This document shows positions 240-54,791 of a stretch of DNA of 64,000 bases, piece after piece. This DNA comes from Chitinophagales bacterium. GTDB taxonomy: Bacteria; Bacteroidota; Bacteroidia; Chitinophagales; Chitinophagaceae. Positions within the stretch are counted from its first letter, which is position 1. Every line of letters starts with the position of its first letter. A program made the position numbers and the translations under genes. The DNA lies in contig JBBSJI010000002.1 of assembly GCA_038257425.1 (NCBI GenBank), positions 9,940 to 73,939 of the forward strand, in the 5' to 3' direction. A model generated the notes under the pieces. It was not told the origin of the DNA, did not search any database, and saw nothing but the letters and a program-made list of their open reading frames with translations.

Positions 240-3200
240 CTATTGTCCTTTTTTAAGTACGTTCACTTTTAATATAGCTTCATTCACTTCAATTTCCATT
301 CCGTCGTTTAAAACAGGCAAAAAAGTAAGTGAGTCAGCTAGAATTTCGGCGCAAATATAATCTTTATATTGAATTATAGACGGTTGCAGCCCTGCATTTT
401 CACTTACTATTATATCTATCCTGTCAGCCAGGTTAAATCCACTGTCTTTTCTGATATTTTGTATCCTATTTATAAATTCCCGTGCATCCCCTTCTTTTTT
501 CAAATGGTCTGTAATTACTATATCTAAAGCTACTGTTAGCTGTCCTTTTACAGCAACTTCATAGCCCGGTATCTCATCAGTAGAAATTTCCAGGTCCTCG
601 GCATTGATAATAATTGGTTCTTCGCCTGAGGTCTTATAATCAGGATTAAGCAGGTATTCATTTTCTAAAACCTGGTCTATAACCGTATTATCAAAAGCTG
701 AGATCTGTTCAGCAGCCCATTTCATTTTTGGCCCCAATTTTTTACCCAGTGTCTTAAAATTGGCTTTAGCTTTTTTCTTAATAAAATCATTATCGGGTCT
801 CAGCACCTCAACTTCCTTAATATTGGTCTCGGCCTTAATTATTTCGGCTACTTTATTTATACGCTCTGCCATCGTGATATCCAAAGCTGGTATAAAAACT
901 TTTTGCAGTGGCTGCCTCACCTTAAGATTTACTTTCTTGTTTTTGCGAAGCGACAATATCAGTGACGAAATATCCTGGGCCAGCTGCATTCTTTTCTCCA
1001 GATCAACATCAATTACAGTGCCATTCACTTTTGGAAAATCGGTATGATGTACAGATTGTTTGTTGAACCTGTTTGATACGGTATTGAGATTATTGAATAA
1101 CCAATCAGCAAAGAAAGGGGCAACAGGAGCCATCAGTTTGCAAAGTGTTTCAAGACATTCATACAAGGTTTGGTAAGCACAAATCTTATCATGCTCATAT
1201 TCTCCCTTCCAGAACCGGCGGCGACAAAGCCTTACGTACCAGTTACTCAAATGGGCATCTACAAAATCTTCAATAGCACGGCCTACCTGTGTAGGCTCGT
1301 AAGCATCAAAATTTTCCTGTACATCTTTGATTAAACTGTTCAGGGAAGATAAGATCCACTGGTCTATCTCGGGCCTGTCTTTTACGGGGATATAATTTTC
1401 TTTAAAAGCAAATCCATCAACATTGGCGTACAATGCAAAGAACTGGTAGGTGTTGTAAAGCGTACCAAAGAATTTACGTTGCACTTCTTTAATACCTTCG
1501 CTATCAAATTTTAAACTATCCCATGGTGATGCATTGGTGATGAGGTACCAGCGGGTGGCATCGGCACCAAAACTATCAATCGTGGCAAATGGATCAACTA
1601 CGTTGCCAAGGCGCTTACTCATTTTATTACCGGCCTTATCCAAAACCAGTCCGTTACTTACTACGGTTTTATAAGCAACACTGTCGAATAATAGTACAGC
1701 CAATGCATGAAGGGTATAGAACCAGCCTCTTGTTTGGTCAACACCTTCGGCAATAAAATCTGCAGGGAAGGCCCCATCCCAACCTTTCCCAAAGGGGAAG
1801 GGGTTACCACCGTTTACTTTCTCCATATCAAGGCCCCATTGTGCGTAAGGCATGGCGCCGCTATCGAACCAAACATCAATAAGGTCTGGTACCCGTTGCA
1901 TGGGTTTGCCTAAAGGACTTACCAAAGTAATTTCATCCACATAAGGTTTATGCAGGTCAAGTATACCTTCGTGCAGGTAATGTTTATTTGTTTCGCCGCC
2001 CAAAACTTCGGCAGCTTTTTTTATTTCGTTGTTCAGTTCTTCAATTGATCCGATACATTTTTCTTCTTCACCATCTTCGGTTTTCCAAATCGGAAGCGGT
2101 GTACCCCAAAAGCGGCTACGGCTCAGGTTCCAGTCAACCATATTCTCCAGCCAGTTGCCAAAGCGGCCGGTGCCGGTGCTTGCAGGCTTCCAGTTGATGG
2201 TCTTGTTGAGTTCAACCATCCTGTCTTTAACTGCTGTGGTTTTAATGAACCATGCATCAAGAGGATAATAAATAATGGGTTTATCTGTACGCCAGCAATG
2301 CGGATAATTGTGTTCGTATTTTTCAACCTTAAAAGCACGGTTCTCTTTTTTGAGCTTAACAGCAATATCAACATTCACATCCACGTAATCTTTTTCATCT
2401 TTATAATTTTTTACATAGCGGTTGCTGAATTCACCAACGCCCTCAACAAATTTTCCCTGCTTATCAACCAGGGTTAAAATGCCGAGGTTGTTTTTTTGTC
2501 CTGCTTTAAAATCATCTGCACCAAATGCAGGTGCTGTATGTACAATGCCGGTACCATCTTCGGTAGTTACAAAATCGCCAACAATAACTCTGAAAGGTTG
2601 AGCGCTTGGCGTTATTTCCTTAATTTTTTCTAAAGTATTTGCTTCGGAGGGGAGGAGTTGTTCGTAAGAAATGCCTTCAAACTCTTTTCCTTTAAATTCC
2701 GCTATAATTTTCCATGGAATAGCCCCTCCGCCCCCCGAAGGGGAGATCTTAGACACTTCAATGTTACTCAGCTTTTCTGAATATTCACCGAAGTTTCCGT
2801 TTTCATTTTCTACCTTAAAATATTTTGTAACCAATGCTTTTGCAAGAATAACATTAATGGGAAGATGTGTATATGGGTTGAAAGTTTTTACCATTACATA
2901 ATCAATGTTAGGTCCAACAGTCAAGCCTAAGTTGGAAGGTAATGTCCATGGTGTAGTTGTCCAGGCCATAAAGAAAGCCCCCCCACCCCCCGAAGGGTGG
3001 ATTGAAGAAGACTCTGCAATTGCAGAAAAAATCTTAGCAACAGCAGGGTGTTGCTCCCTCTCCTTTGGAGAGGGCTGGGGTGAGGTTTTCAGGAGCCGAA
3101 ACATCGCCACCGCACTCGTATCCTTCACATCCTTATAAGTACCTGGCTGGTTTAATTCGTGTGATGACAAGCCCGTACCGGCAGCAGGTGAGTAAGGCTG

Positions 3201-3740
3201 AATGCTTACACTCTCATACAGGTATCCTTTCTTATACAATTCGCTCAGGCACCACCAAAGGGTTTCAACATAATTATTTTCAAATGTTACATAAGGGTCT
3301 TTCAGATCTACCCAATAACCCATTTTTTGGGTTATATCATCCCACTTATCTTTAAACCGCATCACCACTTCACGACATTTTTTATTGTAATCCTCTACAG
3401 ATATTTTTACACCGATATCTTCTTTGGTTATGCCTAATTCTTTTTCAACGCCCAACTCAATAGGCAAGCCATGAGTATCCCAACCGCCTTTACGTTTTAC
3501 CTGAAAACCCTGCATGGTTTTGTAGCGGCAAACCAAATCTTTTAATGTCCTGGAAATAACATGATGTATACCGGGCATACCATTGGCACTTGGGGGACCT
3601 TCATAGAATACAAACGGAGGGTGGCCTTCACGGAACTGAACACTTTTTTCAAAGGTTTCTTCTTTCTTCCATTTTGCCAAAATCTCTTCACTTATGGAAG
3701 GGAGGTTCAATTGCTGGTATTCGGTATATTTTACACTCAT
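240..3740 (-). CDS. ileS: isoleucine--tRNA ligase (long, type-2-like)
   Basis: 1166-aa ORF with a HIGH-region (PGIHHV), KMSKS motif (GNKMSKRLGN) and editing-domain motif WTTTPWTLP. Contains four in-frame GC-hairpin repeat units (see repeat features). Confidence 0.97.
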   Translation of the reverse strand: MSVKYTEYQQLNLPSISEEILAKWKKEETFEKSVQFREGHPPFVFYEGPPSANGMPGIHHVISRTLKDLVCRYKTMQGFQVKRKGGWDTHGLPIELGVEKELGITKEDIGVKISVEDYNKKCREVVMRFKDKWDDITQKMGYWVDLKDPYVTFENNYVETLWWCLSELYKKGYLYESVSIQPYSPAAGTGLSSHELNQPGTYKDVKDTSAVAMFRLLKTSPQPSPKEREQHPAVAKIFSAIAESSSIHPSGGGGAFFMAWTTTPWTLPSNLGLTVGPNIDYVMVKTFNPYTHLPINVILAKALVTKYFKVENENGNFGEYSEKLSNIEVSKISPSGGGGAIPWKIIAEFKGKEFEGISYEQLLPSEANTLEKIKEITPSAQPFRVIVGDFVTTEDGTGIVHTAPAFGADDFKAGQKNNLGILTLVDKQGKFVEGVGEFSNRYVKNYKDEKDYVDVNVDIAVKLKKENRAFKVEKYEHNYPHCWRTDKPIIYYPLDAWFIKTTAVKDRMVELNKTINWKPASTGTGRFGNWLENMVDWNLSRSRFWGTPLPIWKTEDGEEEKCIGSIEELNNEIKKAAEVLGGETNKHYLHEGILDLHKPYVDEITLVSPLGKPMQRVPDLIDVWFDSGAMPYAQWGLDMEKVNGGNPFPFGKGWDGAFPADFIAEGVDQTRGWFYTLHALAVLLFDSVAYKTVVSNGLVLDKAGNKMSKRLGNVVDPFATIDSFGADATRWYLITNASPWDSLKFDSEGIKEVQRKFFGTLYNTYQFFALYANVDGFAFKENYIPVKDRPEIDQWILSSLNSLIKDVQENFDAYEPTQVGRAIEDFVDAHLSNWYVRLCRRRFWKGEYEHDKICAYQTLYECLETLCKLMAPVAPFFADWLFNNLNTVSNRFNKQSVHHTDFPKVNGTVIDVDLEKRMQLAQDISSLILSLRKNKKVNLKVRQPLQKVFIPALDITMAERINKVAEIIKAETNIKEVEVLRPDNDFIKKKAKANFKTLGKKLGPKMKWAAEQISAFDNTVIDQVLENEYLLNPDYKTSGEEPIIINAEDLEISTDEIPGYEVAVKGQLTVALDIVITDHLKKEGDAREFINRIQNIRKDSGFNLADRIDIIVSENAGLQPSIIQYKDYICAEILADSLTFLPVLNDGMEIEVNEAILKVNVLKKGQ
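1771..1805 (-). repeat. GC-hairpin unit R, translated in ileS
   Basis: GCCCCATCCCAA + CCTTTCCC-AAA-GGGGAAGG. On the coding strand it reads NPFPFGKGWDGA. Confidence 0.7.
2722..2747 (-). repeat. GC-hairpin unit A, translated in ileS
   Basis: GCCCCTCCGCCCCCCGAAGGGGAGAT. The coding strand encodes ISPSGGGGA. Identical to unit B at 22 of 26 nt. Confidence 0.8.
2977..3002 (-). repeat. GC-hairpin unit B, translated in ileS
   Basis: GCCCCCCCACCCCCCGAAGGGTGGAT. The coding strand encodes IHPSGGGGA. Confidence 0.8.
3053..3086 (+). repeat. GC-hairpin unit C, translated (antisense orientation) in ileS
   Basis: GCTCCCTCTCC-TTT-GGAGAGGG + CTGGGGTGAGGT. The ileS strand encodes TSPQPSPKEREQ. Confidence 0.85.
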
Positions 3741-3810
3741 AAATTCCCTGAAACTTTTATTCTGCAGTTAGTATTGTTAAACTAGCCAGTTATACGTTTA
3801 AATAAGTGTG

Positions 3811-3818
3811 CAAAGGTA
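3811..3818 (-). promoter_or_regulatory. candidate Bacteroidota -7 box (TACCTTTG) for ileS
   Basis: The reverse strand reads TAccTTTG, matching the TAnnTTTG consensus, 71 nt upstream of the ileS ATG. Confidence 0.3.
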
Positions 3819-4072
3819 GTAAAATAGCAGAGTTCTTAAATATGGATAAATTGCTAATTTACAGGTGTAAATACCTGCGTTGCTTTCGTATAATTACAGT
3901 GCTTTATTTTTAATTCGTGTGAAAGCCCTATTCTGCCTCAGTTTCAGCCCTACTTATCCACATTTTAAAACCTTTGGCATAGAATTGGCAATTATTCTTT
4001 TAGAAAATAAGGAAGTTAGTTACTTAAAAATATATAATAAAGATTTTTGCTGGTTTAGGGTTTTATTAGGGT

Positions 4073-4112
4073 AAAAAAGACGGGGGTAGTCTTATTCCCG
4101 TCTTACTTTTTT
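4073..4112. terminator. bidirectional rho-independent terminator-like hairpin
   Basis: AAGACGGG-12 nt loop-CCCGTCTT, flanked by an A-run upstream and a T-run downstream, so it has a U-tail on either strand. Confidence 0.5.
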
Positions 4113-4248
4113 AAAATGCTAAATTAAAAAAATTAGGTTCCGCTTTAACATCCAATACACCAACACCAATACCTGTTAAAAATTATTTCTCGGAAACAGT
4201 ACAAAACGAAAAGGTTTTCATCTACTTGGAAGCCTTTTTAAATATTTG

Positions 4249-4283
4249 TAAAAATAAAAAACTGCCTTTCAGTAAAGGCAGCT
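4249..4283 (-). terminator. terminator of the HmuY-like gene
   Basis: CTGCCTTT-CAGT-AAAGGCAG hairpin about 20 nt past the stop at 4304, followed on the minus strand by TTTTTTATTTTT. Confidence 0.6.
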
Positions 4284-4303
4284 TTTAGTTTTTCAATATC
4301 AAA

Positions 4304-5371
4304 TTATTTTATAAGGCTGTATTTGAATTCTGGTTTCCCCCTTGTACCTCCATCGGTACCGATACCCATGGAGAGGCATTTTAACTTGTAGTAATTACCT
4401 GTGGCATCTTTAATTATATAGAACCTGTCGAGCCTGGCACCGGTTGCCGGTTGTGTGCTTCTCCAACTGCTGCCAATTGCCCATCGGCTGGTTGAGGGAG
4501 TAGTAAGAGCCACACTGTCTTTATTAAAAGCAGCATATGCACTTTCTGCTGTTGCTGCATTGGCATATATTTTTGAAGCGACAGTTACCCCAGATAAATA
4601 GTTTACAGCGATCAGGTCAGAAAAATTATAAGGTACGGGCCCAGCACCAAAATTCGCTTCAAATACTGAATAGCTCCAAACCAAATCCCATTTTTCCTTT
4701 TCAGGTTGTGCATCTACTATACCTGTTTCAAAAGAAATAAATTTAAAATGATATGCTGCATCTTTGGCAACCTGTATTGTTCTGAAAGTTGTTTCCTGGA
4801 TACCTGCATATTGGAGGGTATATCCCCCGTTTATATTACGCAATACCCTTAATTTAACCCAAGGCCTGGCTGCAATGCCGCCACCTGTGCCACGATTGAG
4901 AATGATCACTTTGTTATTGGCATCTGTTGCAGCTATTGCAGGTATAACTGTTTTTGTAAGATCGCCGGCTACATTATCAAAATAAGGAAGATCCTGTGGT
5001 AAGGGATTAAACTGGCTGGTTGTTAAAGTTAACCCTATGGTATCTGCCGCACCAACTGTTGCCAGGTCATTTTTTGCCAATACTTTGGCGCCGGCAACTG
5101 ATGTATTATTTAAAACAACCCTGAAATCTGATCCTGAATAAAAGCCAAGATCCCAGCCTGAACGTAATACCGGCGTTTGCCTGTCGGCTGAAAGATCGAG
5201 ATAGACAGCATTACCGGCAACAGTTCCAGCTTCGCTGCCTGCTATACCATTCAATTTAATTTGTGCGCCGTTTGATGGGGGTATTATAAAAACAGGGTCA
5301 ACATCCTTTTTACAGGCTGTGAACAATAATAAAGTTGCAGCTATTAAAATATTTTTTTGTGTGCGTATCAT
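4304..5371 (-). CDS. HmuY-like lipoprotein (putative heme-binding partner of the adjacent TonB-dependent receptor)
   Basis: 355-aa ORF with a lipoprotein signal (LLLFTAC). WDLGF and KWDLVW motifs are reminiscent of the HmuY family. It is 31 nt downstream of a TonB-dependent receptor gene. Confidence 0.6.
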   Translation of the reverse strand: MIRTQKNILIAATLLLFTACKKDVDPVFIIPPSNGAQIKLNGIAGSEAGTVAGNAVYLDLSADRQTPVLRSGWDLGFYSGSDFRVVLNNTSVAGAKVLAKNDLATVGAADTIGLTLTTSQFNPLPQDLPYFDNVAGDLTKTVIPAIAATDANNKVIILNRGTGGGIAARPWVKLRVLRNINGGYTLQYAGIQETTFRTIQVAKDAAYHFKFISFETGIVDAQPEKEKWDLVWSYSVFEANFGAGPVPYNFSDLIAVNYLSGVTVASKIYANAATAESAYAAFNKDSVALTTPSTSRWAIGSSWRSTQPATGARLDRFYIIKDATGNYYKLKCLSMGIGTDGGTRGKPEFKYSLIK

Positions 5372-5402
5372 GATGTATGCTTTTAGATAAGATGATTAAT
5401 TT

Positions 5403-7460
5403 TTATTTTTTATTCCATTGAATGTTTAAACCCACAAAGTAAGAACGCCCATAACCCACAGCCACTGTAGCGCCTGCTGAATGAATAGCGTTACTGGCAA
5501 CAGCTGTGTTTCTTGCATTGGTAACATCAAAAATATTTTTTACGCCTGTGCTAACAGAAATGTATTTATTGATCTGTGTATTGGCAGTAAAATCGGCCAG
5601 GTGATAGGCTTCTGTTTCGGCTACTATTAAAGCCTGCTGGTTTGAAGCATTGATGCCCGGCACCAGTTGAGGTCTTTTGCCTGTAAGTTTATAAAAAACA
5701 TTCAGCCTGGTTTTTATTGTGGGAATACTGTAACCTACCGAGGCATTCACTTCGGGGGTCCATAAATATTTTTTATCATCTTCTTTTATGTAGATCTTGT
5801 CATTGTAATACTGGCGGTAAAAACCAATGTATGAAAGTCCCAGCGATGCATCCAGGTTTTTGGCAGATAATTTATTTTCGAGGGTAAAACCTGCTGTTTT
5901 TGCATTGTTGATGTTTAGATAAGTGTATTGAACCGAATCAAGCGTTTCAAAATCTATCTGGTTATTAAACTGGTTATAAAAACCGGCTAATGAAATGTTA
6001 TAAGCCATGTTATTTTTTGGTATTGCGTTCCAGTTAATAGATGCATTAAAACTGTTTGAGGTTTCGGCCTTTAAGTTTGGATTGCCCACAATATTGTGGT
6101 TCACATCAACAAAATAAAAATACAGTTCTCTTAATGCAGGCGCACGAAAGCCATACGCATATGCAAAACGCAGATCAAGTTGTTTGTTTAAAATGATCTT
6201 ACTGTTAATAGAAGGAATAACAGGCGGTGCATTGTAGTCAGAATTTTTAATGAAACGTAACCCCGGGCGGATATTGATCCGGGAGTTTGGTTTTATTTCT
6301 GCAGAGATGAAAGCCGCATAATCTGTTATAGACGGGTTGTCCTGTATTCTTTCTCCGCTGGCCGCTTCGCTGTTTATATCAATACCTGGCTGTAAAGCGA
6401 TCTTGTTGCTTAGCTGGTATTGAAATGTAGTTCTGAAAACAAAACTGTTGAATTTGGAAATATCCTGTTCGCCCTCACCGGTTGTTAACTCATCTGTATC
6501 TTTTTCAAAATCGTGGCGGGAAGTTTTTGTTCTTCTTTTATAATTGGTGTAGCCAACTACAGTAGCCATCTGTAATTTTTTATTGAATGCATAACTGCCC
6601 TGTAACTGGTGGGATAACCTGTCTGTAATATATTGCTGATCTATTGCTTTATAGTTACCATAATTAATGGCTCCTTTGCTTACAATATCTTCTGCCAATG
6701 CATCAATACGATAATACATGTTCAGGCCATTTTTATCGTAACCGATCCGTGCATTACCCATCCATTGCTCTTTGGGCTTCCATGATTTTGCCCTGCCGTA
6801 AGCATCCCCGCCAAAACCATTGAAATCGTTGTGTGTGCCACCGGCAGCAAAACTCCAGTTGCTTTTTTTGTAGGCAAGAGTTACATTTTGCTGGTGAACA
6901 CCTTTATAGTTGAATGGATGGTATTCTGAGCCTGCGGTCTCTTCCTGCAATTTTGCAGTTATAGATAAAATGTCTTTACTGTATTTTTTTGTAATGATGT
7001 TGATAACACCTGCTAAAGCATCTGAGCCGTAAGATACCGACATCGGCCCTTCCACAATCTCGATTCGCTCAATGCTGTTAATGTCTACCTGGCCCAGGCT
7101 TTCACGGGTATCGCCGCGGTCAATCATTGGCACACCATCTAATAGAATTTTTACATTCCGACCACTCATGCCCATCAACTGTACATCTGTTGTACCAAGG
7201 GTATTATCGCTGCTAAAGCGAAACCCTAATTGATTATTGAGTACCTGCTGAACATTGGTAGCGCCACTTTGTTTAATGCGCTCATTATTTATAACTCTCA
7301 CCTGATAAACAGATTTCTTTAAGGATTGAGGCTTATATTGACCGGTAATGATCACCTCATCAAGTTTTTTACCTAAGAGAGAATCCTGTTGGGCAAAACA
7401 GGCATTGGATATCATTATTGCCATCAGCAATACGAATGGGTTTAGACTTTTTTTCATCAA
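5403..7460 (-). CDS. TonB-dependent outer-membrane receptor (heme/HmuR-like by context)
   Basis: 685 aa with a signal peptide and plug motifs (DEVIITG; IERIEIVEGPMSVSYGSDALAGVINIITK), followed by a long beta-barrel region. Confidence 0.9.
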   Translation of the reverse strand: MMKKSLNPFVLLMAIMISNACFAQQDSLLGKKLDEVIITGQYKPQSLKKSVYQVRVINNERIKQSGATNVQQVLNNQLGFRFSSDNTLGTTDVQLMGMSGRNVKILLDGVPMIDRGDTRESLGQVDINSIERIEIVEGPMSVSYGSDALAGVINIITKKYSKDILSITAKLQEETAGSEYHPFNYKGVHQQNVTLAYKKSNWSFAAGGTHNDFNGFGGDAYGRAKSWKPKEQWMGNARIGYDKNGLNMYYRIDALAEDIVSKGAINYGNYKAIDQQYITDRLSHQLQGSYAFNKKLQMATVVGYTNYKRRTKTSRHDFEKDTDELTTGEGEQDISKFNSFVFRTTFQYQLSNKIALQPGIDINSEAASGERIQDNPSITDYAAFISAEIKPNSRINIRPGLRFIKNSDYNAPPVIPSINSKIILNKQLDLRFAYAYGFRAPALRELYFYFVDVNHNIVGNPNLKAETSNSFNASINWNAIPKNNMAYNISLAGFYNQFNNQIDFETLDSVQYTYLNINNAKTAGFTLENKLSAKNLDASLGLSYIGFYRQYYNDKIYIKEDDKKYLWTPEVNASVGYSIPTIKTRLNVFYKLTGKRPQLVPGINASNQQALIVAETEAYHLADFTANTQINKYISVSTGVKNIFDVTNARNTAVASNAIHSAGATVAVGYGRSYFVGLNIQWNKK

Positions 7461-7625
7461 ATAATTTTATAAAATCAAAAAATAGACCGCTGTGTTTTGT
7501 TCGTTTTGGTCATTTACAAGCACAAAGTTGGTTTCGTATTGTTATAGATTTATCATGGTTTTGTCAGGATGTTAAATACCTGTTTTAAATCATAATGTTT
7601 TACGAAATGATGACAGAATACATGA

Positions 7626-7664
7626 TCAAAAACAAAACAGGTGCTGATAATTATCAGCACCTGT
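7626..7664 (-). terminator. terminator after the 753-aa receptor gene
   Basis: Perfect 14-bp-arm palindrome ACAGGTGCTGATAA/TTATCAGCACCTGT, followed on the minus strand by TTTGTTTTTG. Confidence 0.65.
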
Positions 7665-7691
7665 TATAAAATTTATTTATAAAAAGAGATT

Positions 7692-11235: not shown

Positions 11236-13224
<1,989 letters not shown>

Positions 13225-25995: not shown

Positions 25996-26025
25996 CGCCC
26001 ACCCAAACCCTCCCGAATGGAGGGC
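25996..26025 (-). repeat. GC-hairpin unit D (reverse orientation)
   Basis: CGCCCACCCAAA + CCCTCC-CGAAT-GGAGGG. Begins at the base after the nuoA TAG stop. Confidence 0.8.
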
Positions 26026-26040
26026 TTTAAAGAGTATAAT

Positions 26041-26619
26041 ATGCGGAACAGCTTTTCAAATAATTCAGAGTCTTCAAAAGCCCCTCCGAAGGAGGGGCTT
26101 GGGGAGGCCTCTTTTCCGGGCCAGATACAGGAACTGCCCGGCGGGGGTATTGTATTAAGCAAGCTTGATGAGGTTATCAACTGGGCAAGGTCAAACTCTT
26201 TATGGCCGCTCACCTTTGCTACAAGTTGTTGCGGTATTGAAATGATGGCCGTAGCTTCTGCAAAGTATGATTTCTCAAGATTTGGATTTGAAGTGGCACG
26301 TGCTTCACCGAGGCAGGCAGATGTAATTATTATTGCCGGTACCATAGTAAATAAGATGGGACCGGTTTTAAAAAGATTGTACGACCAGATGGCTGATCCC
26401 AAATACGTGATCGCCATGGGGGCCTGTGCTATAAGTGGCGGACCTTTTTTTTATAATACTTATTCTGTTGTTAAAGGTGCAGATCATATTATACCGGTGG
26501 ATGTATATATACCCGGTTGCCCGCCAAGGCCCGAAGCACTGTTACATGCACTGATAAGCTTACAGGATAAAATAAAAGCCGGTATGACAAGAGAGCAAAT
26601 AAAGACCGGTAAAGAATAA
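26041..26619 (+). CDS. nuoB: NADH-quinone oxidoreductase subunit B
   Basis: Cluster-N2 ligand motifs [15 protein letters not shown] and IPGCPPRPE. The track start at 26017 lies in the loop of hairpin D, so I prefer the ATG at 26041. The N-terminus contains repeat unit E. Confidence 0.93.
26080..26109 (+). repeat. GC-hairpin unit E (forward), translated in nuoB
   Basis: GCCCCTCC-GAA-GGAGGGGC + TTGGGGAGGCC. Encodes [10 protein letters not shown] in the nuoB frame. Confidence 0.85.
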
Positions 26620-27081: not shown

Positions 27082-27106
27082 GCCCCCTCAATCCCCCGAA
27101 GGGGGA
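27082..27106 (-). repeat. GC-hairpin unit F (reverse)
   Basis: GCCCCCTCAA + TCCCCC-GAA-GGGGGA, starting 2 nt after the nuoC TAA stop. Confidence 0.8.
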
Positions 27107-27123
27107 AACAAAGCAAGAGAATA

Positions 27124-28278
27124 ATGTATAGAAATACTGATATAATTAGCGAAGGTTCTCAAAGCCCCTCCTTTGGAGGGGTTGGGGAGGCCGGTGATCT
27201 GATCATCAATGTAGGGCCGCAGCATCCTGCAACACATGGTGTATTGCACCTGGTGATCACCCTTAATGGTGAAACTATTAAAAAGGTAGAGCCGCACCTG
27301 GGTTATATTCACCGCTCTATTGAAAAAATGTGTGAGAGCCTCACCTACCGCCAATTCATTTATGTTACCAGCCGCATGGATTATCTCTCTGCCCATATCA
27401 ATAACCAGGCCTGTGCGTTAACGGTAGAGAAAGGTTTGCAGGTGGAGGTTCCCGAAAGGGCTCAAGTGATTAGAGTGCTTATGGCAGAACTTACAAGAAT
27501 TGCATCGCATGAATTATGGTGGGGTGCTATGGCCATGGATATTGGTGCGTTCACACCTTTCTTTCATGCGTTCAGGGAAAGAGAGACCATTAATGATATC
27601 ATGGAAGAAACCTGCGGTGCCAGGTTAACCATGAATTATATGGTGCCTGGTGGCGTAATGCAGGAACTGCATCCCGACTTTCAAAAGAAGGTAAAAGAAT
27701 TCATCACGCTCTTTAAATCGAAAGTGCATGAGTATGATGAAATGGTTACGGGTAATATTATTTTTCAAAACCGGATGAAGGGTGTAGGTATCTTATCAAA
27801 AGAAGATGCGATTTCTTTTGGTTGCACGGGCCCTACAGGCAGGGGGAGTGGCCTGAGTTGTGATATCAGGAAATTATATCCTTACGATGCTTATAGTAAA
27901 GTGCAGTTTGAGGAGATCATTGAAACAGCCGGCGATTCACTGGCCCGTTACATGGTACGCATAAAAGAACTGCATCAATCCATACATATAATAGAACAAT
28001 TGATAGATAATATTCCCGAAGGAGATTTTCAGGCTAAGACAAAAGCCGTTTTAAAATTACCCAAGGGTGAGTTTTACCAAAGAGTGGAAACAGCAAGAGG
28101 AGAGTTTGGTGTGTACATAGTAAGTGAAGGTGGCATGACACCTTACCGGATCAAATTCCGTTCACCAGGATTTTCAAATCTTTCAGCATTGGATCATATG
28201 GCAAGAGGGAGTAAGCTGGGAGATTTGGTGGCGATGATGGGAACACTTGATTTGGTGATACCGGATATTGACAGATAA
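27124..28278 (+). CDS. nuoD: NADH-quinone oxidoreductase subunit D
   Basis: 384 aa with NVGPQHPATHGVLHLV and C-terminal DLVIPDIDR. The N-terminus contains repeat unit G. Confidence 0.95.
   Translation: MYRNTDIISEGSQSPSFGGVGEAGDLIINVGPQHPATHGVLHLVITLNGETIKKVEPHLGYIHRSIEKMCESLTYRQFIYVTSRMDYLSAHINNQACALTVEKGLQVEVPERAQVIRVLMAELTRIASHELWWGAMAMDIGAFTPFFHAFRERETINDIMEETCGARLTMNYMVPGGVMQELHPDFQKKVKEFITLFKSKVHEYDEMVTGNIIFQNRMKGVGILSKEDAISFGCTGPTGRGSGLSCDIRKLYPYDAYSKVQFEEIIETAGDSLARYMVRIKELHQSIHIIEQLIDNIPEGDFQAKTKAVLKLPKGEFYQRVETARGEFGVYIVSEGGMTPYRIKFRSPGFSNLSALDHMARGSKLGDLVAMMGTLDLVIPDIDR
27164..27192 (+). repeat. GC-hairpin unit G (forward), translated in nuoD
   Basis: GCCCCTCC-TTT-GGAGGGG + TTGGGGAGGCC. 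Encodes SPSFGGVGEA. Near-identical to unit E. Confidence 0.85.
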
Positions 28279-28283
28279 AAAAA

Positions 28284-28372
28284 TAATAATGAACAAGGAA
28301 CAAGGAATCCCGAACAAGGAAGTGGGTATTCCGATTGTTATTCATAATTCCTTGTTCCTTGTTCGATATTCA
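28284..28372. repeat. tandem-arm long hairpin X1 (GAACAAG-repeat arms)
   Basis: Left arm AATAATGAACAAGGAACAAGGAAT, right arm ATTCCTTGTTCCTTGTTCGATATTCA, giving an 18-bp perfect stem. Fills the nuoD-nuoH spacer. Arms are identical to X2. Confidence 0.9.
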
Positions 28373-29453: not shown

Positions 29454-29476
29454 CCCCCAGCCCCCTGAAGGGGGAG
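29454..29476 (-). repeat. GC-hairpin unit H (reverse)
   Basis: CCCCCAG + CCCCC-TGAA-GGGGG, beginning at the base after the nuoH TGA stop. Confidence 0.75.
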
Positions 29477-29541
29477 TATTGCGAAGATTGTGTTGTAAAT
29501 ATTGTAGAAGTATTGAAGTAATAAAATTATAGTGTTATAAT

Positions 29542-30078
29542 ATGAGTGATGATTTAAAAAATAAAGACTTCAAAACTCCCCCCTTGGGGGGCGGGGGGGC
29601 TGGTTGGGGGGTTCAGTATTTTAAAGATATTTTCAATGCAATTAAGTCGCTGCTCATTGGCATGCGCCGTACAGGTTATTATTTTACGCATCACAAGGAG
29701 ATCATCACACAGCAATATCCTGATAACCGGGAAACATTGAATTTGCCGGAACGCTTTAAAGGCGAAGTGATCTTACTGCATGATGAAAACAATGAGCACG
29801 CCTGCACCGGTTGTACTGCCTGTGAGCTGGCATGTCCCAATGCAACTATAAAAATTGTTACGCAATTCGATATTACACCCGAAGGCAAAAAGAAAAAAGC
29901 ATTGGACAAATTTGTGTATCACCTTGAGCTGTGTACCTTATGCAATCTGTGTATCATCGCTTGCCCTACGGATGCTATAAAAATGGCACAGACATTTGAA
30001 CACAGTGTTTTTGACAGGGCAGAGCTGACTAAAATTTTAAATAAACCCGGTTCTAAAATAAGAGAAGGTATCGAGTAA
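29542..30078 (+). CDS. nuoI: NADH-quinone oxidoreductase subunit I
   Basis: Two CxxCxxCxxxCP motifs (CTGCTACELACP, CTLCNLCIIACP). The N-terminus contains repeat unit I. Confidence 0.93.
   Translation: MSDDLKNKDFKTPPLGGGGAGWGVQYFKDIFNAIKSLLIGMRRTGYYFTHHKEIITQQYPDNRETLNLPERFKGEVILLHDENNEHACTGCTACELACPNATIKIVTQFDITPEGKKKKALDKFVYHLELCTLCNLCIIACPTDAIKMAQTFEHSVFDRAELTKILNKPGSKIREGIE
29569..29611 (+). repeat. GC-hairpin unit I (forward), translated in nuoI
   Basis: TTCAAAA + CTCCCCCC-TT-GGGGGG + CGGGGGGGCTGGTTGGGGGG. Encodes KTPPLGGGGAGWG. Confidence 0.75.
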
Positions 30079-30883: not shown

Positions 30884-30916
30884 GTCCTCCCTTTCGGGGA
30901 GGATTTAGGAGGGGCC
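30884..30916 (+). repeat. GC-hairpin unit M (forward)
   Basis: TCCTCCC-TTTCG-GGGAGGA + TTTAGGAGGGGCC, ending 2 nt before the nuoK ATG. Confidence 0.75.
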
Positions 30917-31239: not shown

Positions 31240-31270
31240 CCTCACCCCAACCCCTCTCCAAAGGAGAGGG
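31240..31270 (-). repeat. GC-hairpin unit N (reverse)
   Basis: CCTCACCCCAA + CCCTCTCC-AAA-GGAGAGGG, 3 nt after the nuoK TAA stop. Its flank is the exact reverse complement of the unit O flank. Confidence 0.85.
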
Positions 31271-31383
31271 AACTGGGAGATCGAAGCGGTGAGGTGCGGA
31301 GAATTCAGTTTTAGTTTTAAAAGTTTAGGTCTTAATTTGGAACAATGATTCAAAATTTGAGAAGTATTTTTTAATAACCGATA

Positions 31384-31422
31384 TCAAACCCCCTCTCTTT
31401 AAGGAGAGGGTTGGGGTGAGGT
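31384..31422 (+). repeat. GC-hairpin unit O (forward)
   Basis: TCAAA + CCCCCTCTC-TTTAA-GGAGAGGG + TTGGGGTGAGGT, ending 4 nt before the nuoL ATG. Confidence 0.85.
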
Positions 31423-31426
31423 AATA

Positions 31427-33445
31427 ATGCCAAACACAACTTACATAACACTGATCATCTTGCTGCCACTGGCAGGCTTTATAATGCTTGGGCTTTTTGG
31501 TAGAAGATATTTTACTAAAACCTCCGGCGTTATAGGAACAGCATTGTTATTGGTTTCAACCCTGCTTGCCTTACATACTGCTTATAGCTATTTCTTTGAG
31601 TATGGAAAAGTGAATGGTGTTTATCAAAAATTAGTTCCACTTAAATATACATGGTTACAATTTTCCGAGGGCGTATCAATTGATATGGGGATCATCATCG
31701 ATCCCATCTCTGTAATGATGCTAATAGTGGTATCCTTTATTTCTTTAATGGTGCATATCTATAGCCTTGGTTATATGAAAGGCGATGAAAGATTCCCTAC
31801 TTATTTTGCATTCCTGGGGTTGTTTACTTTTTCTATGCTGGGACTGGTTATTTCTTCTAACATTTTCCAGATCTATATTTTTTGGGAGCTGGTGGGTGTT
31901 TCCTCTTTCCTGCTGGTTGGCTATTATTATGATAAACCCAGTGCAGTTGCTGCCTGCAAAAAAGCTTTTATTGTAACAAGGTTTGCCGATGTGGGCTTTT
32001 TGATCGGCATTTTAATCCTGTCTTTTTATTCAGGCACATTAGATTTTAATACATTGATCGCAACACTCACTTCTCCTGAAACCAATGGCTATAAAAATGC
32101 AGTGGCAGCATCTTTCCTGGGTGTTTCTGCATTAACCTGGGGATTAGTATTAGTGTTCATCGGTGCTGCTGGCAAGAGTGCGATGTTTCCTTTACATATC
32201 TGGCTGCCCGATGCGATGGAAGGCCCAACACCAGTCTCAGCATTGATACATGCTGCTACCATGGTGGTTGCCGGCGTTTTTTTAGTGGCAAGATTATTTC
32301 CCGTGTTTGCCATTTCAGCTCCCGGGGCTTTGAGCCTTGTTGGTTATGTTGGCGCCATCTCTGCATTATTTGCAGCAGTGATAGCCTGCACACAAACAGA
32401 TATTAAACGGGTGTTGGCTTATTCCACGATGAGCCAGATAGGATACATGATGTTTGCACTAGGTGTTTCAAAATACGGTGGCGAGGAAAGCCTGGGTTAC
32501 ACCGCATCTATGTTTCATTTGTTCACACATGCCATGTTTAAAGCATTGTTGTTTTTAGGCGCAGGTGCTGTAATACATTATATACACAGCAACGAAATGA
32601 AAGACATGGGTGGGTTAAGAAAATATTTACCCATCACCCATATTACTTTTTTAATTGCCTGCCTGGCTATTGCAGGTGTGCCGCCGTTTGCAGGGTTCTT
32701 CAGCAAAGAAGAGATCCTATTGGCTGCTTATCAAAATAACCAGGCCATTTACTGGATAGCATTGATCACTTCCGGCTTAACAGCTTTTTATATGTTCCGT
32801 TTGTACTTCAATATTTTCTGGAGCAAAGACCATCACGCACATACTCAACAGCATGCTACCGAGTTGAAATCTGAAATTACGGAAGCTGTGGCTCCCTCTC
32901 CTTTGGAGAGGGAGGGGGGTGAGGTCCATAAAGGTGAAGGTGGATTTACTATGATGATGCCTTTAGTATTATTAGCTATTGGCGCAGCAGCTGCAGGCTT
33001 TATTCCTTTCGGTCATTTTGTTAGCTCCGATGGAACAAGGCTGGAAGCTGAATTCCATTTGCAGTTTTCCATTGCTCCTGTGGCACTTGGACTGGCAGGA
33101 ATTTTTATTGCTATGTGGATGTATAAAAAAGAAAATAATAAACCCGATAGGTTTGTTGCTTCGCTGCATGGGTTATACAAAGCGGCTTATCATAAATTCT
33201 ATATTGATGAGATCTATTTGTTCATCACAAAAAAAATAATTTTTAATCTCATCGGCAGGCCGGCAGCATGGTTTGATAAAAATGTAGTTGATGGAATGGT
33301 GAATGCAACCGGCAATGGCACAAAAGATATTTCAGAAATTATAAAAAGTTTTCAATCAGGTAAGGTACAGCAATATGCTATTTACTTTTTGGTAAGTGTT
33401 ATTGGCCTGGCATTGCTGTTTATATACGTTTGGAACCCCCGCTAA
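31427..33445 (+). CDS. nuoL: NADH-quinone oxidoreductase subunit L
   Basis: 672 aa antiporter-like subunit with a long C-terminal extension. Contains in-frame repeat unit P. Confidence 0.95.
   Translation: MPNTTYITLIILLPLAGFIMLGLFGRRYFTKTSGVIGTALLLVSTLLALHTAYSYFFEYGKVNGVYQKLVPLKYTWLQFSEGVSIDMGIIIDPISVMMLIVVSFISLMVHIYSLGYMKGDERFPTYFAFLGLFTFSMLGLVISSNIFQIYIFWELVGVSSFLLVGYYYDKPSAVAACKKAFIVTRFADVGFLIGILILSFYSGTLDFNTLIATLTSPETNGYKNAVAASFLGVSALTWGLVLVFIGAAGKSAMFPLHIWLPDAMEGPTPVSALIHAATMVVAGVFLVARLFPVFAISAPGALSLVGYVGAISALFAAVIACTQTDIKRVLAYSTMSQIGYMMFALGVSKYGGEESLGYTASMFHLFTHAMFKALLFLGAGAVIHYIHSNEMKDMGGLRKYLPITHITFLIACLAIAGVPPFAGFFSKEEILLAAYQNNQAIYWIALITSGLTAFYMFRLYFNIFWSKDHHAHTQQHATELKSEITEAVAPSPLEREGGEVHKGEGGFTMMMPLVLLAIGAAAAGFIPFGHFVSSDGTRLEAEFHLQFSIAPVALGLAGIFIAMWMYKKENNKPDRFVASLHGLYKAAYHKFYIDEIYLFITKKIIFNLIGRPAAWFDKNVVDGMVNATGNGTKDISEIIKSFQSGKVQQYAIYFLVSVIGLALLFIYVWNPR
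32891..32925 (+). repeat. GC-hairpin unit P (forward), translated inside nuoL
   Basis: GCTCCCTCTCC-TTT-GGAGAGGGAG + GGGGGTGAGGT. Encodes APSPLEREGGEV. The first 22 nt are identical to unit C in ileS. Confidence 0.85.
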
Positions 33446-33523: not shown

Positions 33524-33563
33524 CGCTCCTTCCCTATCGGGGAAGGAGAAGGAGGATGGGGCC
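33524..33563 (+). repeat. GC-hairpin unit Q (forward)
   Basis: CTCCTTCCC-TATCG-GGGAAGGAG (9-bp stem) + AAGGAGGATGGGGCC. Overlaps the first possible nuoM ATG. Confidence 0.75.
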
Positions 33564-35040: not shown

Positions 35041-35052
35041 CATTGCTAAATA

Positions 35053-35158
35053 AATAATGAACAAGGAACAAGGAATTTCGAATGATGAGCGTCCGCAAGC
35101 GTCTGCGGAGAATTTCGAACTTCTGAAGTCAATATTCCTTGTTCCTTGTTCGATATTC
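35053..35158. repeat. tandem-arm long hairpin X2
   Basis: Same 24-nt and 26-nt arms as X1, with a longer centre containing an inner hairpin TCCGCA-AGCGTC-TGCGGA and a direct repeat GAATTTCGAA x2. Fills the nuoM-nuoN spacer. Confidence 0.9.
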
Positions 35159-35168
35159 AAATAAAAAT

Positions 35169-36569
35169 ATGCTAAATGATTTTTTAATATTAATGAAACC
35201 TGAACTGCTGTTAACCGGTATCATTTTCCTGTTGCTGTTCATCAAGATCGGCAAAGGTTTAAAAAATGATACCATGCTGTTATTGGTACAGGTGCTGTTA
35301 TTACTGAATTTTATTTTCGGTTTCTTTTTTAATACAGATGGCTCATTGTTTGATGGTATGTACGTAACTACAAACATGATCGTGTTGCAGAAAAGTATTC
35401 TAAGCCTGGGTGTTTACCTGATCTCTTTATTATTTGCAGATTGGTTTAAGAAAAGTGAACACATGCCCGAGTTCTTTATGCTGATGTTATCAGCATTGCT
35501 GGGTATGTTCTTCCTTATTTCGAGCGGTAACCTGCTGATGTTCTTTTTAGCTTTGGAATTATCTACTATTCCCGTAGCTGCCATGGCAAATTTCGATCTT
35601 GATAAAAAAAGATCTTCTGAAGCGGCCATGAAGATGATCCTGTCTTCGGCATTCTCTTCCGGTATTTTATTGTTTGGTATTTCATTGATATATGGAGCAA
35701 CCGGTACAATCAGTTTTGCTGAAATTCCACAGCAGCTTAATGGCAGCCCTTTACAGATCCTTGCATTGGTATTCCTGTTTTCAGCATTTGCTTTTAAATT
35801 ATCTATTGTTCCCTTTCATTTATGGACGGCAGATGTATATGAAGGATCACCGATGGCTGTTACTTCGTTTCTTTCTGTTATATCCAAAGGAGCTGTTGCA
35901 TTTATTTTTATGGCAACACTGTATAAAGTGTTTCAGCCCATGCAGGAAACCTGGTACAACCTGGTGATGATCCTGTCCATAGCTACCATGATCATCGGTA
36001 ACCTGTTTGCATTACGTCAACAAAATATAAAACGCTTTCTTGCCTTTTCCTCCATTGCTCAGGTTGGTTTTATTTTAGTAGGTATCAGCAGTAATTCCAT
36101 TGAAGGAACAACATCGGTTGTTTATTTTATTTTGATCTATGTGTTTTCAAACCTGGCAGCATTTGGTGTGGCTGCAGCCATTGCAGCAAAAGCTAACCGG
36201 GAAAATATTGATGATTATAAAGGTTTGTACCAGACCAATCCTTTCCTGAGCTGGGTATTGGCACTGGCTTTATTTTCACTGGCCGGTATTCCGCCAACTG
36301 CAGGCTTCTTTGGTAAATTATTCTTATTAACTGCCGGTGCATCAAAAGGCAGCTATCTTTTCATTACGATTGCTGCACTAAATATGATCATTTCCCTGTA
36401 TTATTATTTACGTGTTGTACGGTCTGTGTTTATGGAAAAGAATGAACAGCCGGTAGAAAAAGTGGCGATCGAACCCTCTGCAAAATTTGCATTGATCATT
36501 TGCAGCGCAGGCATAATTTTAGTTGGCTTATTAAGCTGGATATATGATTACATACAAAACCTGGTTTAG
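35169..36569 (+). CDS. nuoN: NADH-quinone oxidoreductase subunit N
   Basis: 466 aa antiporter-like subunit. I moved the start to 35169 because the track start at 35139 translates the X2 repeat arm. Confidence 0.93.
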   Translation: MLNDFLILMKPELLLTGIIFLLLFIKIGKGLKNDTMLLLVQVLLLLNFIFGFFFNTDGSLFDGMYVTTNMIVLQKSILSLGVYLISLLFADWFKKSEHMPEFFMLMLSALLGMFFLISSGNLLMFFLALELSTIPVAAMANFDLDKKRSSEAAMKMILSSAFSSGILLFGISLIYGATGTISFAEIPQQLNGSPLQILALVFLFSAFAFKLSIVPFHLWTADVYEGSPMAVTSFLSVISKGAVAFIFMATLYKVFQPMQETWYNLVMILSIATMIIGNLFALRQQNIKRFLAFSSIAQVGFILVGISSNSIEGTTSVVYFILIYVFSNLAAFGVAAAIAAKANRENIDDYKGLYQTNPFLSWVLALALFSLAGIPPTAGFFGKLFLLTAGASKGSYLFITIAALNMIISLYYYLRVVRSVFMEKNEQPVEKVAIEPSAKFALIICSAGIILVGLLSWIYDYIQNLV

Positions 36570-36643
36570 AAGTTTAGGAGTTTAGAAGATTAGTTGAGTA
36601 ATCTCCTGGACCCTAAACCCCTAAACCCCTAAACCCCTAAACT
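36564..36643. repeat. tandem-arm hairpin Y with CCCCTAAA octamer array
   Basis: The left arm GTTTAGAAGTTTAGGAGTTTAGAAG opposes the right arm CCCTAAACCCCTAAACCCCTAAACCCCTAAACT. Overlaps the nuoN stop and ends 5 nt before the next ATG. Confidence 0.8.
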
Positions 36644-36648
36644 ATAAA

Positions 36649-49802: not shown

Positions 49803-50248
49803 ATTACACTAATTAAAACTAATTACACGGATTATAAAACAATTCTTTTCCAGGTTAAGGAGCGTTCTCCAAAGTTAATAACTAATGCCAGCTTCATTCC
49901 GGAAACAGCTAAATAACTCAATCCTTGTGCTAAATGGACATCTATGATGGCTGCTACTGACTTTACTTCGATAATGATGGAGTCATAGACAACAAAATCA
50001 GCTACATAAGGATTTTGAAGGATCTTATCTTTATATTTTACAGTAAACTTCTTTTCCCTGTTATAATTAATACCTTGTTCAGCAAAATCCATTTCCATGG
50101 CATCTTTATAATTTATTTCCTTTAACCCCATTCCAAGTGTTTTATGTATCTCCATACAAACACCAATAATTCTAAAAGATTCTTCTTTAAATAATAATTC
50201 AGTCATTGCTAAAGCTAAATTGGTGTAATTCGTAAAAATCAGTGTAAT
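49803..50248 (-). mobile_element. candidate cassette: GxxExxY gene bounded by 26-nt inverted repeats
   Basis: The left end ATTACAC-N12-ATTACAC (49803-49828) and the right end GTGTAAT-N12-GTGTAAT (50223-50248) match at 21 of 26 positions as inverted repeats. Outside them only about 15 nt separate dtd from the mazG-like gene. Confidence 0.5.
49832..50206 (-). CDS. GxxExxY protein (PD-(D/E)xK nuclease-fold family)
   Basis: 124 aa from MTELLFKEESF. Contains GLKEINY (GxxExxY) and a D...EVK motif (DFVVYDSIIIEVK). Confidence 0.8.
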   Translation of the reverse strand: MTELLFKEESFRIIGVCMEIHKTLGMGLKEINYKDAMEMDFAEQGINYNREKKFTVKYKDKILQNPYVADFVVYDSIIIEVKSVAAIIDVHLAQGLSYLAVSGMKLALVINFGERSLTWKRIVL

Positions 50249-50252
50249 CCAA

Positions 50253-50705
50253 TCATTCTTTGTTTTTAGTATCAATCACAATAGTAACCGGTCCATCATT
50301 TAAAAGCGATACTTTCATATCTGCACCAAACTCGCCGGTATAAATTTTCTTCCCCAGGTCATTTTCTAATTGATTAATCATTTTTTCATAAAGGGGTATG
50401 GCAATAGCAGGTTTGCTGGCTTTTAGGTAGGATGGCCTGTTCCCTTTTTTTGTAGAAGCATGTAAGGTGAACTGGCTTACCAGTAAAATATCGCCAGCTA
50501 TATCCTTTACAGAAATATTGGGCACCTTGTTCTCGTCATCAAAAATGCGTAGGTTGGCGATCTTATTGCTTAGCCATTCAATATCTTCACTGTTATCCCC
50601 ATCTTCAATACCAATTAATACAAGTAGCCCTGAACCGATCTCAGCTTTAACCATATCATTGATACTAACACTGGCCTGCGAAACTCTTTGAATAACTGCT
50701 CTCAT
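50253..50705 (-). CDS. dtd: D-aminoacyl-tRNA deacylase
   Basis: 150 aa from MRAVIQRVSQASV, with SQFTL and the C-terminal NDGPVT motif. The track ORF extends upstream through a terminator hairpin. Confidence 0.93.
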   Translation of the reverse strand: MRAVIQRVSQASVSINDMVKAEIGSGLLVLIGIEDGDNSEDIEWLSNKIANLRIFDDENKVPNISVKDIAGDILLVSQFTLHASTKKGNRPSYLKASKPAIAIPLYEKMINQLENDLGKKIYTGEFGADMKVSLLNDGPVTIVIDTKNKE

Positions 50706-54763: not shown

Positions 54764-54791
54764 GCCCCTCTAAATCTCCCCCAAGGGGAGA
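54764..54791 (-). repeat. GC-hairpin unit K (reverse)
   Basis: GCCCCTCTAAA + TCTCCCC-CAA-GGGGAGA, beginning at the base after the nrdJ TAG stop. Confidence 0.8.

Follow-up and report, generated by a model that had tools for sequence, protein, structure and literature searches.

The window analysed here is a 64,000-nt stretch of a Chitinophagales genome (contig JBBSJI010000002.1, positions 9,940 to 73,939), which carries on its minus strand at 240–3740 an intact open reading frame (ORF) for a type 2 isoleucyl-tRNA synthetase (IleRS) of 1166 aa and, further along, a nuo operon and a class II ribonucleotide reductase gene. Inside the IleRS gene, at 2977–3086, two inverted GC-rich hairpin units are arranged around a spacer. 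The reverse unit (unit B, 2977–3000, minus strand) reads GCCCCCCC-CCACCC-CCGAA..GGGTGG on the plus strand; in mRNA sense it is the right arm, CCACCC ttcggg GGGTGG GGGGGC, and codes IHPSGGGGA. The 55-nt spacer (3001–3055), coding (E)QHPAVAKIFSAIAESSS on the minus strand, contains the exact 14-nt palindrome TCTGCAATTGCAGA at 3013–3026 and a second small hairpin, GCAACAC/GTGTTGC. The forward unit (unit C, 3056–3085, plus strand, CCCTCTCC ttt GGAGAGGG ctg GGGTGAGG) is the left arm in mRNA sense, lies antisense to IleRS and codes SPQPSPKERE. In the IleRS reading frame the whole block is translated into the 37 aa TSPQPSPKEREQHPAVAKIFSAIAESSSIHPSGGGGA, followed by FFMAWTTTPWTLP just ahead of WTTTPW. 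A preliminary description of this DNA had already reported the inverted unit-spacer-unit arrangement with its palindrome and the in-frame 37-aa block, all of which we could confirm on the sequence, except that four residues and not three separate the block from the tryptophan. As the same block is found in 47 of 199 IleRS sequences from independent assemblies, it is not an assembly artefact.

With a probability of about three in four, we read this block as a heterodimer of two units of the BoxC/PIT/TM type (PIT, potential intrastrand triplex), standing with their tails outward in a hypervariable turn of IleRS and translated as a tolerated loop. The turn marks the transition from the Rossmann fold to the CP1 editing domain, and the loop is Pro/Ser/Gly-rich and 37 residues long. 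What is repeated is the single unit, about 30–45 nt long, and not the 110-nt block. Taking the 110-nt block including its spacer as the mobile entity, as was done before, is probably wrong, while the view of the arrangement as non-random and recurrent is right. A scanner for hairpins with a mirrored tail detected 15 units in the window against 0–1 in ten shuffles, and an earlier scanner 17 against 0–2. These 17 units are distributed over IleRS (four), the nuo operon (12) and the region after the ribonucleotide reductase gene (one), and eight of them are located in coding sequence. The palindrome alone is statistically unremarkable, with 0.48 matches expected at up to two mismatches, and is retained in most orthologous copies of the block.

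Architecture of the units

Each unit is built from a pyrimidine arm, a loop of 3–6 nt, the complementary purine arm, a linker of 2–3 nt and a G-rich tail, which mirrors the purine arm of the same unit instead of complementing it, an A of the arm being faced by A or T in the tail. The mirror was tested on hairpins located without the help of the tail. Among 250 perfect pyrimidine/purine hairpins from about 2 Mb of collected sequence, 199 were followed, 0–5 nt downstream and on one side only, by a perfect mirror compatible with the triplet rule, and a single one of the 250 had a mirror on both sides. Stems unlike the search seed gave 60 perfect mirrors among 86, compared to 10.7 (at most 20) when arms and tails were permuted 1000 times. 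The tail base facing an A of the purine arm was A in 199, T in 95, C in two and G in two cases. This is the rule predicted for a fold-back purine-motif triple helix (G.G:C, A.A:T, T.A:T), and judged by its sequence a unit could, as single-stranded DNA, fold back twice into such a structure. There are many stem subfamilies, with stems of 5–10 nt, and the three-way match kept in dozens of natural ones would be evolutionary evidence that the potential to form a triplex is maintained. A reading of the tail as a G-quadruplex was ruled out, as many subfamilies possess only two G-runs.

Elements of this class have already been described as BoxC, as PIT elements (Hoyne, Maher et al. 2000) and as TM_ECO, with the published consensus CCCTCNCCC-N3-6-GGGNGAGGG-N3-GGGNGAGGG (Holder et al. 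2015, PMC4666352). Unit C fits the architecture perfectly and agrees with the consensus sequence and with the copies of Holder's Table 1, and the E. coli copy between mtlA and mtlD, CCCTCTCC atgt GGAGAGGG ct GGGGTGAGGG, has arms and tail as in unit C. The other subfamilies of the window have kept the architecture and not the sequence, and a literature search for the exact unit sequence gave no match. For the E. coli element a triplex has been observed in vitro as single-stranded DNA, the E. coli PIT elements show neither promoter nor terminator activity, and they mark loci that are unusually rearranged between strains (Holder 2015, PMC4666352). Since purine-motif triplexes do not form in RNA (Holder 2015, PMC4666352), the units would act and spread at the DNA level.

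Pairing and the IleRS site in relatives

The preliminary description had proposed a composite resembling a miniature inverted-repeat transposable element (MITE), in which the unit-spacer-unit of about 110–190 nt is itself mobile. On this view it would be the non-autonomous form of a longer element with such inverted ends and would have entered IleRS in one event. The orientation of the units agrees with this proposal. A metagenome collection was scanned with a 19-mer of unit C (120 unselected loci, GC content 0.30–0.66; a GGGGTGAGG-type tail stands on about 80% of the matches), orientation was set by the mirror tail and adjacent units within 300 nt were counted. In these loci 39 neighbours stand tails-out, two tails-in and 18 on the same strand (binomial p = 8e-10), and in the window plus its close, Ferruginibacter-like relatives the corresponding numbers are 17, 0 and three, so that the two orientations are indeed preferentially paired.

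The composition of the pairs argues against a mobile composite. The gap between paired units ranges from 5 to 213 nt and the spacers of different pairs are unrelated, the five pairs of the window having five unrelated spacers. Heterodimers make up 13 of the 17 pairs. An excess of homodimers, as from inverted duplication or terminal inverted repeats, is at most weak, with 17 of 35 compared to a background of up to 34%. No consistent target-site duplication was found in about 30 pairs inspected; TAATAA on both sides occurs at the nuoK-nuoL pair of the window only, in an AT-rich context. Two pairs at locus L148 speak for copying of whole pairs, as their left arms and the initial 11 nt of their spacers are shared. 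At this locus (2231–4059) a single ORF of 1210 aa has three tails-out pairs within 2 kb, and the two similar ones may have arisen by segmental duplication inside a repeat protein or by true copying of a pair.

Solo units, which account for at least one third of all units, are also difficult to reconcile with a mobile pair. They occur in the same IleRS gene too, where single forward units are present at three further sites (window and relatives), always in sense orientation. The unit at site 2 (2718–2745, minus strand; CTCCCC ttc GGGGGG CGGAGGGGC) codes SPSGGGGA, has no partner and is present in some relatives only. The unit at site 4 (1773–1801, minus strand; CCTTCCCC ttt GGGAAAGG tt GGGATGGG) codes PFPFGKGWDG, and PFPFGKGW aligns to columns that at least half of 120 close homologues share, a figure that refers to the columns and not to a count of unit occupancy. 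This copy is apparently old and may have become fixed in the protein; solved homologues presumably have a HYPFEN-type segment at this place. Units inside ORFs of at least 150 aa are frequent elsewhere too, with 26 of 54 in the relatives (22 sense, four antisense) and 70 of 228 in the metagenome loci, whole pairs included. Pfam searches with 20 further ORFs of the window revealed no transposase.

To take the IleRS site itself, we compared 199 sequences (120 proteins at ≥81% identity and 79 of 80 genome loci). Between AMF(R/K) and (E/V)FF(L/M)AWTTTPW the sequence is hypervariable: a short native loop (e.g. AIKNEKLKIKNVDGE) is found in 95 sequences, the block (unit, EHPAISKIFSAIAES, unit) in the 47 mentioned above and other inserts in 57, including other repeat classes of the EQGTRNK, GTTCAAAG and AGTGGGC types. 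In the solved type 2 IleRS 8C8U both flanks are only five residues apart at the block site. The intact ORF and the varied inserts of the relatives thus identify an in-frame insertion at a structurally tolerant position. The block acts as a single allele, either wholly present or with the short native loop in its place, and this all-or-none behaviour is what a mobile composite would give. Block-bearing sequences are scattered over the IleRS tree with native-loop sequences as their nearest neighbours. Protein P0037, with the block, is 97.3% identical to the native-loop P0048 and 93% to the nearest other block-bearer, and L072, also with the block, is 85% identical to its native-loop neighbours and 75% to other block-bearers. 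Monophyly of the block-bearing IleRS is ruled out by these neighbours and by the mosaic gene described below. Such a scatter points to recombination over repeated transposition, without deciding between them.

At the DNA level the pair L081/L082, which encodes the 97% identical proteins P0037 and P0048, shows a 108-nt block replacing 45 native nt. The native loop was therefore replaced and not interrupted, which speaks against the mobile composite suggested earlier. Along the gene the identity of L081 and L082 is mosaic (0.79–0.99 in 90-nt windows), which suggests that IleRS recombines frequently in these populations.

Across ten orthologous DNA copies of the block the spacer is conserved and the arms are variable. 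The left hairpins have stems of CCCTCTCC, CCCCTCC, TCCCTCC or CCCCCC and the right ones of CCACCC, CCCCC, CCCTCC, CCCCTTCTCC or CTCCCTCTCC, each with a tail matching its own stem. The two arms of the block belong to different subfamilies and are swapped between orthologues while the spacer persists. As a stepwise change would require coordinated edits in three segments, replacement of an arm by another family member is likelier than mutation. Partial forms exist: L019 has the forward arm only, the right arm of L012 is decayed, and L010 has a partial spacer without GC units and a different repeat on its left. Outside this site no second copy of the spacer was found in 1.1 Mb, allowing up to five mismatches in 24 nt. 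The spacer identity between genomes (0.71–0.83) equals that of the flanking codons and thus carries no dating information on a recent transfer. Taken together with the nuoC-nuoD junction and the nuclease loci described below, these data keep the tails-out pairing and the all-or-none block from the earlier proposal; a mobile 110–190-nt composite as such we consider rather unlikely, given the solo units and the unrelated spacers.

Units at the nuo junctions

According to the preliminary description the reverse-then-forward arrangement recurs at six intergenic places of the nuo operon. We find four intact pairs (nuoA-nuoB, nuoC-nuoD, nuoH-nuoI and nuoK-nuoL) and a fifth, nuoL-nuoM, with a decayed reverse unit; the recurrence thus holds, at fewer places than six. 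Neither are the pairs purely intergenic, since in three of the four intact ones the forward unit lies within the 5' coding region of the downstream gene. At nuoA-nuoB (25999–26107) the reverse unit (25999–26024) begins about 4 nt past the nuoA stop and the forward unit (26081–26107) is inside the NuoB N-terminus; the mechanically called nuoB start at 26017 falls inside the hairpin, and the real start is probably 26041. The nuoC-nuoD pair (27083–27190; reverse 27083–27106, forward 27165–27190) has the nuoD start (27124) between its arms, and so does the nuoH-nuoI pair (29454–29597) with the nuoI start (29542). The nuoK-nuoL pair (31240–31420) has near-identical arms and is wholly intergenic, with the TAATAA on both outer sides. 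Single forward units on the plus strand are located just upstream of the nuoK start (30885–30913) and in frame inside nuoL (32892–32924), and the forward unit just upstream of the nuoM start (33526–33560, plus strand) has a reverse partner that is decayed in the window and intact in L206. Called starts and N-termini of NuoB, NuoD and NuoI depend on the units. Outside the operon a solo reverse unit (54765–54791, minus strand) begins 2 nt past the stop of the class II ribonucleotide reductase gene (51401–54763).

The positions of the units raise the possibility that they are functional elements selected by the host, the pairs either structuring the polycistronic nuo mRNA or providing IleRS with a useful flexible loop. 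Such elements would place a hairpin after each stop and a hairpin with a Shine-Dalgarno-like GGAGG/GAGG tail before each start. In agreement with this, reverse units begin about 0–7 nt from the upstream stop codon in the nuo operons of five relatives, similar to the unit after the ribonucleotide reductase gene, and forward units end just before the downstream start codon, abut it or sit a few codons inside the gene, again in five genomes. Hairpins are kept at orthologous sites, and the RNA of the IleRS block (126 nt) is predicted to fold into a closing stem from both outer tails plus four hairpins with dG of -52.7 kcal/mol (z = -3.5). On the other hand, presence, absence and subfamily of the units vary among genomes that are 90–97% identical in these proteins, and close relatives function without them. 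A forward unit at the nuoJ-nuoK junction is present in the window and L204 and missing in L203 and L206, and at nuoL-nuoM L206 has the full pair. The mirror tail indicates a DNA triplex, which is impossible in RNA, the E. coli PIT elements are without promoter or terminator activity (Holder 2015, PMC4666352), and Rfam at gathering thresholds gave no match in the whole window. Selection of the pairs by the host for such a function is therefore improbable. Bacteroidota make little use of Shine-Dalgarno pairing, and for this reason a Shine-Dalgarno role of the G-rich tail was set aside.

The nuoC-nuoD junction is informative on the origin of the spacers. Among the NuoD homologues compared (P0121–P0240, 84–94% identical) three N-terminal classes can be distinguished, namely unit-free proteins of 371 aa, unit-free proteins of 377 aa starting with MYRETEII, and proteins of 383–387 aa with MYRETEII plus a unit of one of several subfamilies. 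As the unit-free L205 has the MYRETEII start region, the sequence between the arms can exist without them. The start codon and first eight codons of nuoD are hence found between the arms here and also in a relative free of units, which is not expected if unit-spacer-unit moved as one element. In L245, whose NuoD is 94% identical to that of the window, the same junction contains a complete pair around an unrelated 80-nt spacer located wholly upstream of a different start codon. Judged from these alleles, the nuo junctions seem to be repeatedly overwritten, like the IleRS loop.

Further repeats were observed in the nuo operons. The nuoH-nuoI spacer of L204 (about 12283–12672) contains, between its reverse and forward unit, a tandem of about five copies of an 80-nt module made of a reverse unit and spacer. 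A second repeat class with the inverted repeat GAACAAGGAACAAGGAAT...ATTCCTTGTTCCTTGTTC occupies the nuoD-nuoH and nuoM-nuoN spacers (28280–28372 and 35048–35160), and its translation is found as EQGTRNK words in the variable IleRS loop of the Sediminibacterium-like L047, L050 and L051. After nuoN (36569–36645) a third class follows, an inverted array of GTTTAGG-like units facing CCCTAAAC units, which L206 also has at this junction.

A candidate nuclease and comparison with known systems

At locus L086 (3952–4384) a tails-out pair encloses an ORF of about 111 aa encoding DUF559, a Vsr-like PD-(D/E)XK nuclease, and the whole unit-ORF-unit segment lies in frame inside a 1420-aa MetH-like ORF (3421–7683, minus strand). 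Five further DUF559 homologues were chosen regardless of their termini and all five are flanked by units, with L209, L213, L224 and L233 inside a tails-out pair and L235 having a partial left arm. Units also adjoin the ORF in eight plasmid or chromid copies from Cyanobacteria, Deinococcus, alpha- and beta-proteobacteria (L237–L244), where the gene is inside a pair in L239 and L243 and between two pairs in L237, L238, L241 and L244. In E. coli, TM_ECO no. 9 is located 168 nt downstream of the DUF559 gene ycjD (L236), with a chance expectation of about 0.005, and the ycjD stop codon sits in the loop of a unit-like hairpin. In total, a unit is found within 170 nt of the DUF559 ORF in 14 of 15 loci from several phyla, and in eight of the 15 the gene is enclosed by a tails-out pair. 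These eight, including the one in frame in the MetH-like gene, resemble the autonomous relative that a MITE-like composite would need; against this, DUF559 is no known transposase and in four loci stands between pairs and not inside one. We found no publication linking DUF559 or ycjD to these repeats, in a literature coverage that was incomplete. A different nuclease of the window, a PDDEXK_3 (GxxExxY-type PD-(D/E)XK) ORF at 49832–50275, adjoins a D-Tyr-tRNA deacylase gene and has no flanking units.

From these observations we infer, as the most likely process, that single units spread at the DNA level, often by replacing existing copies and with a strong preference for tails-out pairs around weakly constrained DNA. 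A break or nick at or near a unit would be repaired from another copy, resulting in copy-and-overwrite and not in cut-and-paste with target-site duplication, with a DUF559 endonuclease as candidate enzyme. If copy-and-overwrite involved a DUF559 nuclease, this would explain why target-site duplications are missing, why native sequence is replaced, how the arms turn over and why the sites are locally hypervariable. More generally, BoxC/PIT-type units and DUF559 endonucleases could be a widespread two-part system of Bacteroidota, Cyanobacteria, Deinococcus and Proteobacteria including ycjD, with the nuclease recognising the folded unit and triggering copy-and-overwrite. The tails-out pair would then be the footprint of this process, in which weakly constrained DNA is rewritten between conserved flanks, loops of essential proteins such as IleRS, NuoD and MetH included. 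We put this forward tentatively, as a possibility suggested by gene neighbourhood; such a system may be analogous to REP/RAYT (repetitive extragenic palindromes and their associated tyrosine transposases) or to a homing element.

Several points weigh against our interpretation of the block as a translated tails-out heterodimer of triplex-type units that spread singly. Unit B is a degenerate unit with an A in its pyrimidine arm and a short tail; it was missed by the hairpin-plus-mirrored-tail scanner, and the orthologous arms in relatives are better formed. A triplex was undetected in vivo in E. coli (Holder 2015, PMC4666352). The tails-out bias is unexplained by independent insertion of single units, and among the IleRS alleles there is none with the same spacer and one arm cleanly absent, so that a one-step arrival is possible. 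That the spacers are host sequence is weakly suggested at IleRS by a peptide similarity to unit-free long-loop alleles, and at nuoC-nuoD this origin rests on one unit-free relative (L205). Finally, neither the window nor the loci of the relatives contain a DUF559 gene.

A REP/REPIN system mobilised by a RAYT (Y1 HUH) transposase is highly improbable: REPs too are short palindromes present as singletons and as inverted doublets with 5–120 nt spacers, with frequent heterodimers and intragenic doublets coding 20–30 aa (Di Nocera 2013), and from Bacteroidetes RAYT subclasses with associated atypical structures are known (Quentin 2018), but the units described here have no GTAG or CGTC tag and end in G-rich mirror tails foreign to REPs, and the only RAYT-like ORF is flanked by a different REP. 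A motif scan of six-frame translations of the 2 Mb of loci, as distinct from whole genomes, revealed no RAYT gene flanked by the units. The one RAYT-like ORF (L167, 2646–3200; motifs NHFH ... YVHLNP) is flanked by GTAG-type REPs, CCTACAAGG...CCTTGTAGG (CCTACAAGGTTTTGAAAACCTTGTAGG). The same contig also carries two triplex units, two repeat systems thus being present in one genome.

To our knowledge, the BoxC/PIT elements have been known since the 1990s without an assigned function, in vivo structure or mobilising enzyme. The recurrent adjacency to DUF559 genes, including ycjD of E. coli, provides a candidate for the missing protein partner that is testable in a model organism. In the Bacteroidota lineage the elements are routinely translated in essential genes (IleRS and complex I subunits) and in a MetH-like gene, where they remodel loops and gene starts. 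In practical terms, conserved marker proteins become longer and more variable in length through such inserts, and in metagenome-assembled genomes start codons are called at shifted positions.

Compared to BoxC/PIT/TM_ECO, the units have the same order of pyrimidine stem, loop, purine stem, loop of about 3 nt and mirrored purine stem, and unit C has the arms and tail of the E. coli copies (CCCTCTCC / GGAGAGGG / GGGGTGAGG). In both cases the elements are dispersed and multi-copy, inverted pairs are heterodimeric, the loci are unusually variable between close relatives and no transposase is known. They differ in that the copies of E. coli K-12 are always intergenic (23 of 23; Holder 2015, PMC4666352), whereas eight of the 17 window units, and elsewhere about a third to a half, are in frame within genes, some of them essential. 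In E. coli K-12 tails-in pairs prevail (four of five in Holder Table 1, with gaps of 16–27 nt), in contrast to 56:2 tails-out with 5–213 nt here. Furthermore, the host is a Bacteroidota (Ferruginibacter-like) lineage, and many subfamilies with stems of 5–10 nt instead of 9 nt are present.

With REP/BIME/REPIN the units share the organisation as short structured repeats in singletons and inverted doublets. Most REP families also favour doublets with the tails outside, and heterodimers, variable spacers and occasional in-frame intragenic doublets are likewise known (Di Nocera 2013); here inverted doublets are strongly favoured, yet their arms are often of different subfamilies and their spacers unrelated. 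The missing GTAG/CGTC tag, the mirror-repeat tail and the lack of an associated RAYT separate them from REPs. Intragenic copies have been described for some REP families and also for the RPEs (palindromic elements) of Rickettsia (Di Nocera et al. 2013). The latter are similar as in-frame repeats translated in essential genes at tolerant surface positions, but are single elements of 100–150 nt and not units of about 30 nt or pairs thereof, and judged by their descriptions they are unrelated in sequence and structure. MITEs, in turn, resemble the pairs in their small size (65–190 nt) and inverted, structure-capable ends, and a longer ORF-bearing version may exist; the pairs described here differ by having neither target-site duplication nor shared internal sequence or identical ends, and by a candidate partner that is a PD-(D/E)XK nuclease and not a transposase.

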